Below are positions 1-14,005 of a stretch of 64,000 bases of DNA, piece after piece. Position numbers and translations under genes: made by a program. The notes under the pieces were generated by a model. The model saw only the letters and a list, made by a program, of their open reading frames with translations, did not search any database and had not been told where the DNA came from. The stretch spans positions 124,001 through 188,000 of the forward strand of contig CAXBME010000005.1 in assembly GCA_963976765.1 (NCBI GenBank). Direction: 5' to 3'. Positions within the stretch are counted from its first letter, which is position 1; the number at the start of each line of letters is the position of its first letter. This DNA comes from an uncultured Planctomycetaceae bacterium. GTDB lineage: Bacteria > Planctomycetota > Planctomycetia > Planctomycetales > Planctomycetaceae.

Positions 1-1332
1 GTCGTCGATCGAAAAACGCGAGTGCTGGTGATCGCTGGCGGCCCCATGCGGGATTATCAGTTTGTTAGAAACATGTTGTATCGGCATTCGGCCATTCAGA
101 CCGATGTGTGGTTGCAGACGGCGGACGCGGCGGGTGCGGTCAGCCAGGAAGCGAATAAGATTCTGACGTCGTTTCCGGAATCGAAAGAAGAATTGTTCGA
201 CTACGACGTGATTGTTGGCTTTGACCCCGATTGGAATCGACTGAGTCCCGAGCAGGTTAACCTGGTCAGCGAATGGGTCTTCGCACAGGCTGGTGGACTG
301 GTTGTGGTGGCCGGAGACGTTTACTCGGCGAGCGTTGCCAGTGACGCCAGGCTGGAAAAGATCCGAGAGTTGTACCCGGTCGTGCTGAATCGATTTGTCA
401 CTGACAGTGGAGGCTCCCGCACGGTGATTCAGTCGTGGCCGTTTGAGTTCACTCGAGAAGGCCGCGAAGCAGGATTTCTTCAGATCACGGACGAGCAGGT
501 TTCTTCGGCGGAAGTCTGGAAAGAGTTCCAGGGCGTCTATTCCGCTTATCCAACCAGCGGTGCGAAGGCCGGGGCGACGGTCTATGCCTACTTTTCCGAC
601 CCCCGAACTCAAAGTGCCAGCGGACTGCCGGTGCTGCTGGCTTCACAGTATTACGGAGCCGGTCGAGTCATTTATCTCGGCAGTCCGGAAATGTGGCGAA
701 TGCGGTCGATCGACGAAGTCTACTACGACCGCTTCTGGACGAAGTCGATTCGGGAAGCCGGTCAGGCTCGGCTGAAACGAGGCAACAACCGCGGAACGCT
801 GCTGCTTGAGCGGAACCAGTTTGTCCTCGGTCAGACCGTGCGGGTTCGAGCTCAACTGACCGATCCACAGTTTGAACCGTTAGTGGCCGACTCAGTTCGC
901 GCCGAGATTTTCGACCCCGATGGTCGACCGATGATTCCGCCCGTTCGCCTGCAAAGGGACTCAAACCGCGCCGGGCAGTTTGTCGGCAGCTTCCGAGTCA
1001 GCGCGCCCGGCGTCTGGAGAATTGACATTCCGATTCCGCAGTCCGGCGATCAGCTGTCTGAGAAGATCGATGTGATCCTGCCCAACCTCGAAACTGACAA
1101 CGCCAGGCAAAACGCCCAACTGTTGAGACTCATTGCCGAAGATACTGGCGGAGCGTACTTCCCACTGAGTGAAGCAGCGGAAGAAGTTCCCAAACGGCTC
1201 CCCAATCGAGGCGAAGAATTTCAGATCGACCAGCAACTCAAGACGCTGTGGGACCGGGAGTGGCTGATGTACCTGCTGATCGGCCTGCTCTCGATCGAGT
1301 GGCTGACCCGGAAACTGTTGAAACTGGCTTAG
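1..1332 (+). CDS. VWA/class I glutamine amidotransferase-like (DUF1355-like) membrane-anchored protein, 5' truncated by window edge
   Basis: Frame is open from base 1. Motifs RVLVIAGGP..DYQF, LFDYDVIV, GGLVVVAG and YGAGRVIY..MWR are present, with a C-terminal TM 'LWDREWLMYLLIGLLSIEWLTRK'. Paralogous to 41709..44126. Confidence 0.75.
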   Translation, partial: VVDRKTRVLVIAGGPMRDYQFVRNMLYRHSAIQTDVWLQTADAAGAVSQEANKILTSFPESKEELFDYDVIVGFDPDWNRLSPEQVNLVSEWVFAQAGGLVVVAGDVYSASVASDARLEKIRELYPVVLNRFVTDSGGSRTVIQSWPFEFTREGREAGFLQITDEQVSSAEVWKEFQGVYSAYPTSGAKAGATVYAYFSDPRTQSASGLPVLLASQYYGAGRVIYLGSPEMWRMRSIDEVYYDRFWTKSIREAGQARLKRGNNRGTLLLERNQFVLGQTVRVRAQLTDPQFEPLVADSVRAEIFDPDGRPMIPPVRLQRDSNRAGQFVGSFRVSAPGVWRIDIPIPQSGDQLSEKIDVILPNLETDNARQNAQLLRLIAEDTGGAYFPLSEAAEEVPKRLPNRGEEFQIDQQLKTLWDREWLMYLLIGLLSIEWLTRKLLKLA

Positions 1333-1345
1333 GAGTTCAAGACTG

Positions 1346-1379
1346 CGGAACGCAGAGCGAGCAGAGGAGGCGCTGAGAG
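1346..1379 (+). repeat. Left imperfect inverted repeat flanking GxxExxY gene
   Basis: CGGAACGCAGAGCGAGCAGAGGAGGCGCTGAGAG matches the reverse complement of 1806..1839 at 28/34 positions, and the outer 12 nt match perfectly. Confidence 0.85.
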
Positions 1380-1407
1380 CTTAACGTAGAACTAAAGCGG
1401 AGCCGCG

Positions 1408-1797
1408 ATGACGTCGGTAAATACATTGACAGAAGCGATTATTGGATGTGCGATGACTGTGCATCGGCGACTTGGTCGAGTCATACTCGAATCGGCTTAC
1501 GAAGCTTGCCTGATGTATAAACTGCAGGCTGCTGGTTTTAGCGTTGTCTCACAAATGCCGATCCCCCTGATCGGTAGCGATGCTCATCTTGAATGCGGAT
1601 ACCGGCTCGATCTACTGGTTGAAGATCGCGTAATTGTCGAAGTGAAGGCCAAAGAATCGATCCCGCCTGTCGACTGTGCTCAATTGCTGTCATGCCTTCG
1701 GCTGGCTGAACTCGAATTTGGCCTGTTTTTGAACTTTCACACAGAAGTGCTCAAAGACGGCATCCACCGAATCGTCAACAATTGTTGCGAAGGTTGA
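1408..1797 (+). CDS. GxxExxY family protein (PD-(D/E)XK nuclease-like), somewhat degenerate
   Basis: LTEAIIGCAMTVHRRLG..ILESAYEACL, GYRLDLLVEDRVIVEVK, AQLLS.L, GLFLNF...LKDGIHRIVN; 129 aa. Confidence 0.92.
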   Translation: MTSVNTLTEAIIGCAMTVHRRLGRVILESAYEACLMYKLQAAGFSVVSQMPIPLIGSDAHLECGYRLDLLVEDRVIVEVKAKESIPPVDCAQLLSCLRLAELEFGLFLNFHTEVLKDGIHRIVNNCCEG

Positions 1798-1805
1798 TCA
1801 CCCGT

Positions 1806-1839
1806 TTCTCTGCGAGTCCTCTGTTCCCTCTGCGTTCCG
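1806..1839 (-). repeat. Right imperfect inverted repeat flanking GxxExxY gene
   Basis: TTCTCTGCGAGTCCTCTGTTCCCTCTGCGTTCCG is the inverted partner of 1346..1379 and is near-identical to 13974..14005. Confidence 0.85.
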
Positions 1840-1850
1840 AAATTTCACCA

Positions 1851-4334
1851 ATGCAAACTCCAGCTCGCCTCAACCCGGAACTTCAGAACATTCTGACGCA
1901 GTTGCGCGGGCGGATTCGTCGGTATGTTTTTCTCGAAGGAACCGCATTGATTCTTGCGGTGCTGGGTGGACTTTTCTGGCTGAGTCTTGCTGTGGATCAC
2001 GCCTGGTTTCAGATCAGTCGACTGGAGCTGCCGCGGTGGTTTCGGGCTGGGTTCGATGTGGTTGTCGTTGGACTGGTCGCCTTTCTGCTGTTGTCCTGGA
2101 TTGGGCTGCGGTTGTTGCGGAGTTATCGAACCAAGGCGCTTGCACTCGTGCTGGAACGTCGGTTTCCTGAGCTGGACGACAGGCTTGTCACAGCCGTTGA
2201 GCTGGCTGAAACCGGACTGGCGGACCAGGGAAAACTGGCCGTCGCGATGGCAGGCCGAACAATCGATGATGCCGTGAAGGCGACTCGGCAATTAGATCTG
2301 GCGAGCGTGTTCGACCGCAAGCCTCTGCAGCGAGCGATCGTTGCGGCGGCGGTCGCCATCGCCTCGATCGGTGGTCTGGCGGTTGCCAGCAACTCGACGT
2401 TGCAAACCTGGAAGAACAGTTTTGTCGACTTGAATCCGGAATACTGGAGCCGCGAAACGGGGCTCATTATCCGAGTCATCGCACAACCGGGAGATACCAT
2501 TCGCGAGTTCAGCGGCCAGTCTTACAAGCACGCTCGCGGTGCGGATCTCACGCTTCAGATCGATGTCGAAGAAGGGCGGAAGGCTCCTGAGCGAGTTCAG
2601 CTGAAATATCGGCTGGCCAATGGTCGCGGCCAGGGCACTGTGCTGTGTTCGCGAGTTGGCGACAACACATTTCGGCATTCGCTCGCGGCTTTGCTGGACG
2701 ATGTCGAGTTTTACGTTTACGGCGGCGACTTCGTGAACCGCACTCCCTACCGGGTGCAGATTGTCGAACCGCCCCAGTTAGAGCAGGTCGAACTGGCCTG
2801 TTTTTATCCTGCCTACACGCGGATGGGGAGTCCCGAGTCGACGGTTGAAAAGCCGCTCCGCGATGTCGTTCCCGTTCGAGGGACACAGGTCGAGCTTCCG
2901 AACGAAACCGAATTTCTTCTCAACGCAAAGTCCAACAAGCCGCTGACTCAGGTGAGGATGCAGTTTGGCGGTTACGAGTTGACGTTCGGACGTTCAGAAG
3001 ATGACGCCGGCTCGTCTGCGCGGCTCGTTCACCGCAGCGACGAAGACGAGGTTCTGGAAAATCGCGACATTCCGCCGCAAGAGTTCTCGAAGTGGGTCAG
3101 CAATGGTGGAACACAGATTTCAGTTCCCTTTGTTCTGACTTCGTACGAATCAGACGCCGCTCGATCACGTGCCGATTCGATGATGACGGAAGTCGGCAAG
3201 CCGTTTGTCCTGGCACCTGACACGAACCTGAGAATCTACCTGGAAGACGCAGATAGAATTCTCACCGCCGAACCGTCGCGCATCCAGGTCGGCGGGATCG
3301 TTGACGAGCCACCGGTCATCGAGACGAGCCTGCGCGGAATCGGAACGTCGATTACTCGCAAGGCTTCCATCCCTGTGCTGGGGCGGCTGGTCGATGATTA
3401 CGGGCTGGCGAGTGCTCAGTTTGAATTCAAGGTGGATGATGTCGAAGAAGTAAACGTTCGCCCCTTCGAAAACTCATTAACTCCCTACCTGGACGGCAGC
3501 ATCCGTCGTGAGTTTGAGCTGAAGCGAAACGACAGAGAAGGGTTCGAAAGATTTGATGTTCTTTCGCTGGATCTTTCTCTCGGCCAGAAGCTGGTGCTCA
3601 GCGTCGTCGCCACGGACGAGGACAATCTGAACGGGCCACATCGTTCGCGAGGTGAACGATACGCTTTCAAGGTCGTCAGCAACGAGGAGTTGCAGTCCGT
3701 GCTTTATCAGAGGGAACTGAATCTTCGATCGCAGTTTGAAAGAGTGATCACCGAAACAAAGCAGACTCAGCAGGACTTGATTCTGCATCGATCCCGGCTG
3801 GATGCGAAGAAGCGCTTGCTCGCTGACAACGAAGAGTCGGAAGCCGCCGACAAAGCCAAACGGATTCGGGAAATCGAACTTGCGGTAACGGCATGTGCCG
3901 AGCGGTCGTTGCACGCCGTTCGAAAGAACGCCAACGAAACGGCATCGGTCGAGCTTTCATTTCGAGACATTCGTGAAGAGCTGGTCAACAACGGTCTGCA
4001 CACGCCACAGACTCTGGAGCGAATTGACGACCGTATTGTGAAGCCGCTCGGGTTGATCAATACGACAGATTTTCCTGCCGTAGACGAAGCACTGGGCGTG
4101 TTCCGCCTGACCAACGAGCGAGGCAATGACGCGACGCAGGCGATCGATCAGAGTGTCGAGATGCTGCGCGGCATGATTACTCGCATGGAACGCGTGCTGA
4201 CTGAAATGGAGAAGCTGAAAGAGTTTCAGAAGGCAGTCGAAGAGTTGAAACTGATCCTCGAACAGCAGCAGCAACTTCTGGAACAGACGAAGAAAGAACG
4301 AAAAAGAAAGCTGCTGCTGGAGTCGTTGCAGTAG
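1851..4334 (+). CDS. Large membrane-anchored protein (3 N-terminal TMs, Ig-like middle, coiled-coil C-terminus; DUF4175-like, planctomycete VWA operon type)
   Basis: ATG at 1851 (MQTPARL) is preferred over the longer ORF start, which runs through the repeat. Motifs ALVLERRFPELDDRLVTAVEL, DEPP, DDYGL and ATD.D. Confidence 0.75.
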   Translation: MQTPARLNPELQNILTQLRGRIRRYVFLEGTALILAVLGGLFWLSLAVDHAWFQISRLELPRWFRAGFDVVVVGLVAFLLLSWIGLRLLRSYRTKALALVLERRFPELDDRLVTAVELAETGLADQGKLAVAMAGRTIDDAVKATRQLDLASVFDRKPLQRAIVAAAVAIASIGGLAVASNSTLQTWKNSFVDLNPEYWSRETGLIIRVIAQPGDTIREFSGQSYKHARGADLTLQIDVEEGRKAPERVQLKYRLANGRGQGTVLCSRVGDNTFRHSLAALLDDVEFYVYGGDFVNRTPYRVQIVEPPQLEQVELACFYPAYTRMGSPESTVEKPLRDVVPVRGTQVELPNETEFLLNAKSNKPLTQVRMQFGGYELTFGRSEDDAGSSARLVHRSDEDEVLENRDIPPQEFSKWVSNGGTQISVPFVLTSYESDAARSRADSMMTEVGKPFVLAPDTNLRIYLEDADRILTAEPSRIQVGGIVDEPPVIETSLRGIGTSITRKASIPVLGRLVDDYGLASAQFEFKVDDVEEVNVRPFENSLTPYLDGSIRREFELKRNDREGFERFDVLSLDLSLGQKLVLSVVATDEDNLNGPHRSRGERYAFKVVSNEELQSVLYQRELNLRSQFERVITETKQTQQDLILHRSRLDAKKRLLADNEESEAADKAKRIREIELAVTACAERSLHAVRKNANETASVELSFRDIREELVNNGLHTPQTLERIDDRIVKPLGLINTTDFPAVDEALGVFRLTNERGNDATQAIDQSVEMLRGMITRMERVLTEMEKLKEFQKAVEELKLILEQQQQLLEQTKKERKRKLLLESLQ

Positions 4335-7024: not shown

Positions 7025-10000
7025 ATGTTTCTGTTTTGCGGGCCGAACCGACGCTCCATACGATCGCCACGTCGGCGTCGCGAAAGTCGGTTCTCTTTAC
7101 AATCCGGTGCGAGATGGCATATCCGAGCCGAGGTTCTTGAGTCTCGCACGCTGCTTGCAGCGACCCTCTATCCGGAGTCTGGCCTGCTATGGATCGGCAG
7201 CTCCAATTTCGCTGACAACGTCCTCGTTGAGTTGGTTGGCGAGTCCCAGATCCAGGTGACGCATAACCGGGAAGCATCCGTATTTCCGCTTGAGTCTGTC
7301 CGGTCATTGTTGTTTCTGGGAAAAGGTGGGCTTGATTACTTCGAAAACCGGACGCCCATCCCGGCAGATGCAATGGGTGGGCCCGGGGCTGACACCTTGA
7401 TCGGGGGCTCCGGCAACGACACTTTGAATGGCAATACTGGCAGTGATCTTCTGATTGGTAACGATGGGGACGATGTATTAAGCGGCGACAGCGGAATCGG
7501 AGACACTCTCGATGGCGGCGACGGCGATGATCACATCTCCGGCGGACTGGGAAGCGACACCATCCGGGGGGGGGATGGAGCAGACGACCTGGACGGCGGC
7601 GTCGGTGACGATTCTGTCTCTGGAGGTGATGGAAACGATACTATTGTCGGTGGCGGCGACCGGGACGTGCTGGACGGCGGAAACGGCGACGACCTGATTC
7701 GAAGTATGGCGACGTCGCAACAGGAAGTGGTTCGTGTCACGACGCTGGCACCCGATGGCCCTGGTTCATTGACCGATGCGCTTTCGCAGGGCAATCGGCA
7801 CATCGTGTTTGACGTTGGCGGGATTATTGATTTGCGCAGCACGTCAGCAGCGCGTCCTGACTACGAGATCATTCTGGCGAAATCCAACATCACCATTGAT
7901 GGCAGCACGGCTCCGTCGCCGGGGATTTCGATTGTTGGCGCCAGAATTCTGATTCAGAACGCATCGAACGTCACCATTAAGCACATCACGCTGGCGCAGG
8001 GCGATGATGTTGTCGGCGTCGACAATCGTGGGCAGCGAGACACGCTGACCATTCAGGCTTCGGAAGATGTCCTGATTCAGAACGTGTCGCTGTTCTGGTC
8101 TCAGGATGAGCTGGCAGATATTTGGGGCGGTTCGCGCCGTGTTACTTTTGACCGCGTACTGTTTGCCGAGCCGCTCGATAAAGACAACCACGCGCATGGT
8201 TTGCTCGCCGGTGCTGGCGCCACGGAAGTCACTATCATCAATTCCGTATTCGCGAGTCCTCGAAAGCGAGCGCCGAAGTTCGCATTTGGGACGGAGTTGT
8301 CTGGCCACACTGGTGGCCTGATGGTCAACAACATCATCTATAACCCGTTGAGCCGTACGGTCATCGTTGGCGATGGCGCGAAAGTCGCTGCCGTCGGGAA
8401 CCTCGTCATCCCGGGCCCCGATTCGCAGGGCCATATTGCATTTCTTGAGGCTCAACCTGACGTCGGATCCGGCACTGAGATCTTTCTGTCGGACAATTTC
8501 TTTCAGAATGCGGATCGGGTCATGGTGCCGAATCCCGGTCGGACCACTCCGTTGTTTACTGACCCCGTCGACTTCAACAACTCCGAAGCCTACGACTGGA
8601 ACGTTTCGTACAAGGCCGGAGTTGGTTCGATTCGCGGCTTGACCGCTGATGGCGTCTACGACCCGGAAGTCAACACGCCGCCGCAGCAATGGATGGTCGA
8701 CGCGCTGGCCGCCATGAATGTCCTGCCGGTGAGCGAAGTTTACAGCAACGTTCTGGCAAACGTTGGAACAACCCCCTGGTCACGAACAGCGGGCGATATT
8801 CGCGTCATCAACGGAATCATCAACGGCACGGGCCGAAAGGTAGAGACGACAGCTCAGGTTGGAGGCATGCCGGCATATGTTTTTGTTCCGCAGTCTGCTG
8901 AGTCTGCTCGCATTGTCACGGCTGAGGAAGCGGATTCCATCTTCGGCGGGCCGGGCAACGACACACTGATCGGTGGCACGGGGAATGATCATCTCAACGG
9001 TGAATCGGGCGACGATCTTATTTCCGGAGGCGACGGCGATGATGAGCTGATCGGTGACTTTGGGAACGACACTCTCAACGGCGAAGCCGGCGATGATCTG
9101 TTGCGTGGTCGTGAAGGAGTCGATCAGATTTCTGGCGGAGTAGGGAATGACATCGCGGCGTGGCAGTCAGGGCATGACAGCGACATCTTTGACGGAGATC
9201 TCGGAGTAGATGAAATTCAGATTACCGGTTCGACCGGCGCAGATGTCATTAAGTTGTCGGCGGTTGAACAGTCGTTGCAGGTGGAAATTGAGGCGAGAAT
9301 CCTCAACGTCAGCCGATTCGAGCGAGCGACGATCGATGGTCGACAGGGCAACGATCGTATTACGACCGATGCACTCGTCGCCTTCGCCAGTGATTATCCC
9401 ACTTATGAGCTGAACAATTTTGAATTCACAATCAGCGGCGGTGACGGACAGGACACGATCGATGCTTCTGCGGCGGTCGATGGCTTCATCGGATTCACCA
9501 TTGACGGTGGAAGTGGTGATGACATGATCGCGCTTCCTCGGTCGCCCGTGGTTGCAATCGGAACATCGATCAACGCGAACTCGGCGTTTGGCGGAGCGGG
9601 CAACGACACAATTATTGGTGGTCTCGGCGACGAAACCATTGATGGTGGAGAAGGTGCGGACAGCCTTGTCGGTAATGAAGGAGCCGACACGCTGCAGGGA
9701 CGGGGCGGCGATGACACCATCGAAGGTGGAGCGGGTGCCGACATTATCAATGGCCACACCGGGAACGACGTTCTGAATGGTAATGGTGATGGAGACACAA
9801 TCGATGGTGGCGATGGCAACGATCGGCTCGTTGGGGGAGGGAGCAGCGATTTACTTTTCGGAGGTGCGGGCAATGACGTCGTGATTGGCAACTCCGGTAA
9901 CGATTTTCTGTTTGGCGATTCCGGCTCGGATACGCTCGACGGTGGCGAAGGAAACGACCAGCTCGTTGGCGGTACTGAAAGCGATCTGCTGGTGGGCGGC

Positions 10001-10144
10001 GCTGATGACGACCTGCTCGACGGCGGTATCGAGCAGGATTCTCTGGCAACCGGCGGCGGCGTGGACACGATTATCGACACCGGGAATGACATCCTCGACG
10101 AAGCATTCGTCAATTGGCACGTTGAGGGCTTTGTCGCTCCGTAA
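7025..10144 (+). CDS. Secreted RTX (hemolysin-type Ca-binding) repeat protein with central PL1-like pectate lyase domain
   Basis: N-terminal EVLESRTLLA (LEPRxLL-like) and many GGxGxDxL repeats. The lyase block shows VTTLAPDGPGSL, IVFDVGGIIDL, SNITIDGSTAPSPGI, WSQDE and KRAPKF. Confidence 0.85.
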   Translation: MFLFCGPNRRSIRSPRRRRESRFSLQSGARWHIRAEVLESRTLLAATLYPESGLLWIGSSNFADNVLVELVGESQIQVTHNREASVFPLESVRSLLFLGKGGLDYFENRTPIPADAMGGPGADTLIGGSGNDTLNGNTGSDLLIGNDGDDVLSGDSGIGDTLDGGDGDDHISGGLGSDTIRGGDGADDLDGGVGDDSVSGGDGNDTIVGGGDRDVLDGGNGDDLIRSMATSQQEVVRVTTLAPDGPGSLTDALSQGNRHIVFDVGGIIDLRSTSAARPDYEIILAKSNITIDGSTAPSPGISIVGARILIQNASNVTIKHITLAQGDDVVGVDNRGQRDTLTIQASEDVLIQNVSLFWSQDELADIWGGSRRVTFDRVLFAEPLDKDNHAHGLLAGAGATEVTIINSVFASPRKRAPKFAFGTELSGHTGGLMVNNIIYNPLSRTVIVGDGAKVAAVGNLVIPGPDSQGHIAFLEAQPDVGSGTEIFLSDNFFQNADRVMVPNPGRTTPLFTDPVDFNNSEAYDWNVSYKAGVGSIRGLTADGVYDPEVNTPPQQWMVDALAAMNVLPVSEVYSNVLANVGTTPWSRTAGDIRVINGIINGTGRKVETTAQVGGMPAYVFVPQSAESARIVTAEEADSIFGGPGNDTLIGGTGNDHLNGESGDDLISGGDGDDELIGDFGNDTLNGEAGDDLLRGREGVDQISGGVGNDIAAWQSGHDSDIFDGDLGVDEIQITGSTGADVIKLSAVEQSLQVEIEARILNVSRFERATIDGRQGNDRITTDALVAFASDYPTYELNNFEFTISGGDGQDTIDASAAVDGFIGFTIDGGSGDDMIALPRSPVVAIGTSINANSAFGGAGNDTIIGGLGDETIDGGEGADSLVGNEGADTLQGRGGDDTIEGGAGADIINGHTGNDVLNGNGDGDTIDGGDGNDRLVGGGSSDLLFGGAGNDVVIGNSGNDFLFGDSGSDTLDGGEGNDQLVGGTESDLLVGGADDDLLDGGIEQDSLATGGGVDTIIDTGNDILDEAFVNWHVEGFVAP

Positions 10145-13877: not shown

Positions 13878-14005
13878 GAACGCAGAGGTCGCTGAGGAGA
13901 AAAACTCAGAGGAAAAGGCGATTCTCTTTGTTATCTCTGCGAATCCTCTGTTATCTCTGCGAATCCTCTGTTATCTCTGCGAATCCTCTGTTATCTCTGA
14001 GTTCC
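13878..14005. repeat. Gene-less inverted-repeat element related to the GxxExxY-flanking repeats, with internal 20-bp tandem array
   Basis: Left arm is GAACGCAGAGGTCGCTGAGGAG...CTCAGAGG. Right arm is (TGTTATCTCTGCGAATCCTC)x3 plus TGTTATCTCTGAGTTCC (13929..14005). 13974..14005 is 28/32 identical to 1807..1838. Confidence 0.85.

Follow-up and report, generated by a model that had tools for sequence, protein, structure and literature searches.

Organization of the cassette locus

The window analysed here is a stretch of 64,000 nucleotides from an uncultured Planctomycetaceae bacterium (contig CAXBME010000005.1, positions 124,001 to 188,000), the genome of which is referred to as G000; G001 to G007 are its congeners, giving eight genomes of the genus in all. 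Close to the start of the window, two inverted arms and a PD-(D/E)XK gene of 129 aa lie between two host genes (Table 1), and both arms and gene are real. The preliminary description of this DNA had reported that the arms are complementary at 28 of 34 positions, without a mismatch in the outer 12 nt, that 13 nt separate them from the upstream stop codon at 1332 and 11 nt from the ATG at 1851, and that no target-site duplication is seen in the window sequence. All of this was reproduced. The arm pair ranks first among the 403 inverted pairs that a repeat finder detected in the window, and its inverted-repeat score (20.5) lies well above the value of 11.5 that marks the 99th percentile in a control set of 1000 ORFs from G000. 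Folded as single-stranded DNA, the spacer reaches z = -3.9, and 0/100 shuffles fold as well. A sigma-70-like promoter was not found in 1200-2000. No RNA data set was listed as containing the stretch, which has no bearing on whether it is expressed.

Table 1. Coordinates of the cassette, its arms and further features in the window
Feature	Position	Strand	Basis or remark
Upstream host gene, 3' part	1..1332	+	ORF, open at window start
Left extension outside arm	1333..1345	+	Common to type-A alleles of G006 and L378
Left arm	1346..1379	+	Three CGCAGAG-type words about 9-11 nt apart
GGAG, putative ribosome-binding site of the nuclease gene	1399..1402	+	Proposed from sequence
GxxExxY-family (TIGR04256 / PF13366) PD-(D/E)XK gene, 129 aa	1408..1797	+	Profile matches
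Codons 8-9 (Thr-Glu), helix 1, candidate specificity residues	1429..1434	+	Track G/A base of repeat word
Right arm	1806..1839	-	Three words of the same type; matches 3' arm of the G000 gene-less hairpin family (profile positions 48-106)
Right extension and first 12 codons of downstream host gene	1840..1886	+	Co-transferred tract
Downstream host gene, 827 aa	1851..4334	+	ORF, no family match
Gene-less cognate hairpin, 3' arm expanded into 20-nt tandem copies	13878..13999	.	Repeat listing and profile

The upstream host gene is collinear with the downstream gene in 8/8 congeners and at 13/22 loci outside the genus. Its earlier label as a VWA/GATase gene was not confirmed: within the window, its sequence matched no NCBIfam family, and its Pfam matches all stayed below the threshold. 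Elsewhere in the window (7025-10144), an ORF of 1039 aa contains many GGxGxD repeats, which are presumably of the RTX-like calcium-binding type, and is the source of most direct-repeat families of the window.

The nuclease and the probable decay of the window copy

The window protein exceeds the curated cut-offs of TIGR04256 (114 bits versus 35) and PF13366 (113 versus 22). The membership in the GxxExxY family that had been proposed for it therefore holds, but the eponymous motif is not intact: it reads V-I-L-E-S-A-Y, and its G is present in 140 of 141 homologues. This speaks for a decayed member of the family rather than an outsider. Six residues of the window copy (P24R, G25V, L26I, Y56G, Y96C and L107F) occur in 0/141 homologues, and E38K was found in 4 of 141; E28, D68, E78 and K80 are retained. 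In comparison with the intact allele of the congener G006, the rarer residue lies on the window side at 18 of the 20 resolvable differences (p = 4e-4, 3 ties). The arms of G006 are complementary at 30/34 positions versus 28/34 in the window, the left arm of which is more worn, including its third word. An intact allele is also present in L378, a metagenome contig with 95% aa identity to G006, and intact pairs within the genus show dN/dS values of 0.045-0.12, i.e. purifying selection. Judged from these sequences, the window copy is probably decaying and probably no longer an active autonomous element. That the odd residues stem from a faulty assembly is unlikely, because the same letters occur in contigs of the runs X1 and X2 and in L379; X1 and X2 are two runs of one study, one of them possibly the source, and L379 probably represents the same genome.

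A structure model of the nuclease was obtained with a pLDDT of 88.6. Its top fold matches are mainly PD-(D/E)XK nucleases, none of which stands above the rest (best Z 8.0). The predicted restriction-like fold, together with the D and ExK catalytic residues, places the protein in the PD-(D/E)XK superfamily. The modelled core fold and the E...D...ExK layout are shared with the nuclease domain of BpuSI (3s1s; Z 8.0, rmsd 3.1, 95 aligned), with the Cas4 protein SSO0001 (4ic1; Z 7.6, rmsd 4.1, 103 aligned) and with Hjc (1gef; Z 6.4, rmsd 3.3, 87 aligned); the fold search points to no more than the generic PD-(D/E)XK fold. Significant sequence relatives were not detected among solved structures (best E 0.3), and a protein atlas search returned only the GxxExxY family itself. 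PF13366 is given as 'Unknown' in a table of PMC3424549.

Arms and repeat words in the GxxExxY family

In the genus, 24 GxxExxY genes were detected in 7/8 genomes, each with a word typical of its clade, and a single genome can harbour several words together with several gene clades. To this set, loci from other taxa were added; altogether 195 loci were gathered, 188 of them with full flanks, and the threshold for arms was the 99th percentile of 1000 control ORFs. The preliminary description had predicted that GxxExxY genes are enriched in flanking inverted repeats, and this is indeed the case: 154/188 loci exceed the threshold (control 1%), namely 20/21 of the genus genes with full flanks, 94/108 loci of the host family as a whole and 60/80 loci of a cross-taxon set (78 genome-contig and 2 viral-contig loci from many phyla and archaea). 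Mismatched flank pairs exceeded it in 9%, and detectable arms were absent at 34/188 loci. Further metagenome loci gave a similar picture (32/43 above the threshold; 50 fetched). Single arms on both sides are the prevailing layout (156/188), and a two-hairpin layout occurs at 11/188 loci.

The repeat word also follows the protein clade, as had been anticipated, with 57 changes versus 96 in shuffled data (0/200). This was determined on a quick tree of 186 proteins with many weak forks, and the classifier left 42/195 loci unlabelled. As kin share word labels, the result stands for clustering and not for co-evolution.

The density of the repeats was counted in 121 host-family genomes, which are related to each other. 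The median is 23 three-word arms per Mb in the 89 genomes with the gene versus 6.3 in the 32 genomes without it, and a reversed-pattern control gave 2-3 per Mb. Within genera, the density follows the gene in 9/11 contrasts, in some of them marginally, and is reversed in 2. The three-word count pattern misses the two arms of the window itself; the density is thus a measure of the repeat class and not of the window arm. Four genomes (G005, G139, G093 and G096) gave no GxxExxY match, yet contain 9-40 repeats per Mb, which may be orphaned populations or reflect missing contigs.

The genes also reach new sites, since the gene L035 of G004 is 87% identical to copies of G000 and G007 and shares no flank with them. 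They are almost absent from plasmids (6/72,556 records) and phages (0/50,697). A search for other cargo between arms in G000 reduced 1653 loose arm matches to 5 pairs; two of these are GxxExxY loci, the remaining three are apparently unrelated pairs or due to chance, and the filter missed the GxxExxY locus on C25. In the same genome, unrelated inverted repeats of about 32 nt enclose an ORF of 1.1 kb (G000:C15:167304-168859).

Gene-less hairpins and gene turnover at other sites

A profile built from ten hairpins of G000 gave 56 matches in this genome, some of them partial. One match is the right arm of the window, and about 55 are gene-less. A stricter hairpin finder detected 36 doublets in G000 and 0 in the shuffled genome. 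The cassette gene occupies the position of the short inner loop of these hairpins, the median pairwise identity of which is 54% (maximum 71%). Fourteen hairpin sites were checked by eye in five congeners, and 11 had collinear relatives. Five of the 11 are conserved in all relatives compared. The other six are variable, the hairpin being absent, truncated or exchanged for one of a different family, and a clean target duplication was found at none of the 11. The divergence of the hairpins and the conservation of 5/11 sites throughout argue against a recent burst. At L244:16870, the site is empty in 5/5 relatives.

Some single sites show how variable these positions are. The hairpin at 13878-13999 of the window is intact in G002, is absent from G007, which has a 9-nt spacer instead, and is replaced by another family in G004, and G003 and G006 possess only the left arm and other repeats. 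A hairpin at L244:2635-2733 (G000:C13) is present in G000 and G006 and absent in G003 and G004, against the species tree. At L439 (G002:C382), a CACAGAG-type hairpin sits within the loop of another hairpin, which is worn and belongs to a different family; this suggests that hairpins may insert into hairpins.

Seven other cassette sites with collinear flanks were compared with G000, and no intact cognate hairpin was detected there in this genome. Instead, two sites show clear one-arm scars and one a weak remnant; of the other four, one carries one arm of another family and three are without arms. An eighth site has the order hairpin-gene-hairpin in G006 and a single hairpin of the same family in G000, G003, G005 and G007; G002 has a worn hairpin there with one of another family nested inside, and G004 is not collinear. 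The most parsimonious reading of the latter comparison is that the gene arrived at a hairpin already present there and that this hairpin was duplicated in the process; gene gain at a hairpin is represented by this one site. Excision joints were not listed among assembled contigs, which are not population reads. Y1 transposases were considered as mobilisers of the hairpins and rejected, since 0/8 Y1 loci of G000 have a three-word arm within 300 nt.

The cassette site in related genomes

With the downstream gene, 30 loci were fetched, 8 from the genus, all of them collinear, and 22 from outside it. Empty sites, which had been suggested as a check on mobility, were indeed found: 3/8 genus genomes are filled with two types of cassette, 4 are empty and 1 retains a one-arm scar. 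The possibility that the gene is syntenic in all relatives, which would have spoken against a mobile unit, is at odds with the 5/8 genomes in which the site is unfilled. Besides G000, the gene occurs at this site in G006 (84% aa identity over the tblastn match) and G002 (60%), and at 0/22 loci outside the genus, 13 of which are collinear. The four empty spacers comprise 27-28 nt and are homologous and mutually alignable (14-26 of 27 identical). The spacer of G001 (62 nt) contains a scar of a right arm of the G002 type (25/32 nt; 0/500 shuffles). A precise junction of empty and filled alleles or a target duplication was detected neither here nor at the 11 hairpin and 7 cassette sites, in a comparison with relatives that are only about 80-88% identical. 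The arm word is absent from the empty 27-28-nt spacers, and an enzyme reading the repeat would therefore have no evident site there.

In trees of rpoB and of the flanks, G000 and G002 are sisters and G006 groups with G003/G005, but the genes of the sister species G000 and G002 at this site share only the 60% aa identity given above. Common to G000, G006 and L378 are the cassette, the 13 nt that precede the left arm, and a downstream gene with a derived start. This start (three extra codons, R-to-N and S-to-N, within the tract 1840..1886) is common only to type-A alleles and occurs in 0/7 other genomes compared. In the first 37 aligned nt of the downstream gene, 8 informative sites group G000 with G006 and 0 follow the species tree, four of the 8 falling in the gap-affected start; in the rest of the gene, the numbers are 26 versus 191. 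Since cassette and gene start match those of a non-sister species, an exchange of alleles between species has taken place, through recombination reaching past the arms. The co-transfer of flanking host sequence shows that recombination took place, not what caused it. The nucleotide identity between G000 and G006 is equal in cassette (79.7%) and flanks (78.6%), and the dS of the cassette (0.77 +/- 0.14) is clearly below that of the downstream gene (1.60) and not distinct from that of the upstream gene (1.08).

These results bear on the proposal that the gene and its inverted repeats form an autonomous unit. It found partial support: the arms are not the limits of what moved at this site, because the shared sequence continues for 13 nt past the left arm and for about 12 codons into the downstream gene, and losses leave one-arm scars.

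Further observations were made around this site. The empty spacers L006 and L007 (G007 and G004) are identical at 26/27 positions though the rpoB genes are only about 81% identical, possibly owing to another allele exchange or to a constrained site. In other genera, unrelated palindromic repeats occur at the same operon junction (L023 of G008 and L020 of G012), which could thus be a hotspot for repeats in general. In G006, another GxxExxY cassette (L053), with a word of a different family, precedes this site by about 3 kb within the same run of genes. Its counterpart in G000 (C5:122776-122845, about 1.2 kb before the window) is a spacer of 68 nt with a possible arm remnant.

A candidate recognition code

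The fifth base of the repeat word is either G or A, and the two adjacent helix-1 residues 8-9 show the strongest association with it. G-words go along with Thr at position 8, or with Glu, Gly, Ser or Asp at position 9. The residue classes were read from all 137 labelled loci and then scored per set. The rule was correct for 47/54 G-word and 37/39 A-word loci of the host family and for 33/37 and 12/17, respectively, of the cross-taxon set, which belonged to the first residue scan and is thus not fully held out. In a later, independent set of metagenome loci, it was correct for 23/23 G-word and 4/6 A-word loci. When only host-family loci were used for training, position 9 shared first place among all columns on the cross-taxon set, with a balanced accuracy of 0.80 (median column 0.50). 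The A-type codons spell the A-word in only 2/56 cases, and since the codons do not spell the word, a link at the level of the protein is favoured. Phylogenetically independent, well-supported pairs number only 6, which makes the test on them underpowered, and the association is not significant there (median p 0.125). A code from residue to base is hence a lead, not a result.

Proposed mechanism and alternative explanations

Congeners either have the unit, lack it or have another in its place, and related genes occur in non-orthologous sites. We consider it an even chance that the window cassette is a copy, probably a decaying one, of a mobile unit, the nuclease of which nicks its own arms while host recombination copies or swaps the cassette. 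Several copies of the protein would bind the three words of each arm, which lie about one helical turn apart, residues 8-9 of helix 1 would read one base of the word, and a metal-dependent active site would cut at or near the arm or an extruded hairpin. Repair might then take another arm-bearing sequence or allele as the template. Such templated repair could lead to the gain of genes at resident hairpins, sometimes with duplication of the latter, to the replacement of cassettes with co-transfer of neighbouring host bases, and to imprecise losses that leave one-arm scars, all without a target-site duplication. In this scheme, hairpins without a gene would serve as landing sites and also arise as by-products. 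Swapping, imprecise loss, co-transfer, hairpin duplication and the lack of target duplications together favour arm cutting plus host recombination over a cut-and-paste process.

Other explanations were weighed against this one. The protein itself might excise hairpins, and rarely its own cassette, and re-insert them at new sites as a RAYT-like mobiliser with a new chemistry, the allele exchange at the window site being ordinary host recombination. We regard this as unlikely. PD-(D/E)XK enzymes hydrolyse and normally do not join strands, the fold is without an HUH/tyrosine or DDE element, and the compared sites offer no precise empty/filled junction or target duplication, even if hairpins at lineage-specific sites such as L244:16870, a repeat density following the gene and the near-absence of the gene from plasmids and phages, which the REPIN preprint also describes for RAYTs, would be in agreement with it. 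Purifying selection on the intact genes, the many hairpins conserved at orthologous sites across the genus and the several words and gene clades in one genome could also indicate a domesticated repair or regulatory module, i.e. a protein processing stalled forks, cruciforms or transcripts for the host, and the patchy distribution would then reflect the usual horizontal acquisition and loss of a small gene in spacers rich in repeats. This is decidedly unlikely, as about 55 cognate hairpin matches persist in G000 while the only cognate gene decays, the arms carry each gene's own word instead of a host-wide one, and genes turn over between sister species.

The preliminary description had also considered that the arms act in RNA, pairing in the operon transcript and looping out the cassette or marking a cleavage, as in rRNA intervening sequences. 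In the predicted sense-strand fold the arms do pair, the ribosome-binding site of the G002 allele would be masked by an inner GGAGA/TCTCC stem (family consensus), and the gene points in the same direction as its downstream neighbour more often than control genes do (128/166 versus 322/573, determined with a crude ORF caller). Nonetheless, such a role is highly improbable and found no support: the stems show no bias of G-U over A-C (25 versus 24; sense strand 25 versus 14, p = 0.11), the hairpins have no fixed polarity to transcription, and 3 loci (33.9 kb) gave no Rfam match. The word at helical phase with a free middle base would rather suit a protein reading duplex DNA.

Returning to arm cutting followed by host recombination, we tentatively propose, with slightly less than even confidence, that GxxExxY genes and phased-word hairpins constitute an undescribed kind of prokaryotic selfish DNA, a repeat-homing system that is transposase-free and operates via host recombination. 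It would comprise a PD-(D/E)XK nuclease of only 120-130 aa, which has a simple residue-to-base code and maintains its own dispersed repeat family.

Significance and comparison with known systems

The feature belongs to a widespread gene-plus-repeat system for which no description was found. A search of the full-text literature, which covered few subscription papers and no supplements, yielded no account of a pairing of GxxExxY, PF13366 or TIGR04256 with a repeat; in one paper, GxxExxY is mentioned in passing beside a reverse transcriptase. PF13366 spans many bacterial phyla and archaea, and the arms are its candidate substrate. The correlation of residues 8-9 offers a direct mutational test. 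The proposed mechanism, if true, would account for a large class of intergenic hairpins that apparently has no name and numbers tens to hundreds of members in each genome of the host family. It would also represent a repeat-mobilising system without a transposase, and provide very small nucleases with a sequence preference that is perhaps switchable. The window locus adds a polymorphic site with two cassette types, a co-transferred host tract, a pair of decayed and intact alleles and the lead on specificity.

The closest likeness is to REPIN-RAYT systems and TIRtrons. Dispersed inverted doublets of about 100 bp sharing the gene-flanking sequence occur in G000 (the 56 profile matches), and extragenic doublets of like size, in which the arms are conserved and the spacer varies, also make up the repeats of those systems (PMC3116915; PMC3733652). 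Like the GxxExxY unit, REPIN-RAYTs, REPtrons and TIRtrons further combine the repeat with a cognate gene for a small nuclease that it flanks, and have several repeat-specific genes per genome and old, diverged repeat populations; rarity on plasmids and phages is another shared trait (bioRxiv 10.1101/2021.07.10.451892). In contrast, those systems have an HUH-Y1 enzyme and short palindromes with a GTAG/CGTC tag, and the cassette has a PD-(D/E)XK enzyme (PF13366) and arms of phased direct words. Moreover, RAYTs are described as vertical and non-jumping, whereas the GxxExxY gene changes sites and crosses species lines. The analogy to RAYT/REP with another nuclease fold, drawn in the preliminary description, therefore holds for the gene-less cognate hairpins and the PD-(D/E)XK enzyme and breaks down at the gene, which is not vertical, and the site, which is not fixed. 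The GxxExxY unit is REPIN-RAYT/TIRtron-like in layout and population structure, yet it is no member of these systems.

IS elements and MITEs have inverted ends around one ORF and gene-less derivatives, and the cassette resembles them in both respects. Unlike them, it is without a DDE, HUH or serine/tyrosine recombinase domain, as only PF13366 / TIGR04256 matched, and shows neither target-site duplications nor near-identical copies, and the tracts that were exchanged reach past the arms. Free-standing homing endonucleases, some of which are of the PD-(D/E)XK type, are small nuclease genes between host genes. Filled, empty and decayed alleles and flanking host bases that travel with the gene are common to them and the cassette. 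The target of a homing endonuclease, however, is a unique host site that is disrupted by the insertion, whereas the likely target of the cassette is its own dispersed repeat family, which remains in the filled allele. In 23S rRNA intervening sequences, an ORF may be enclosed by a long stem; the cassette differs in its position between protein genes, its protein family and the lack of an RNA-strand bias in the stem. Membership of the cassette unit in the RAYT, IS/MITE and intervening-sequence classes was thus rejected in each case. The unit would be categorically new if a transposase-free mechanism is confirmed, and otherwise belongs to the kind formed by a repeat and its cognate nuclease.
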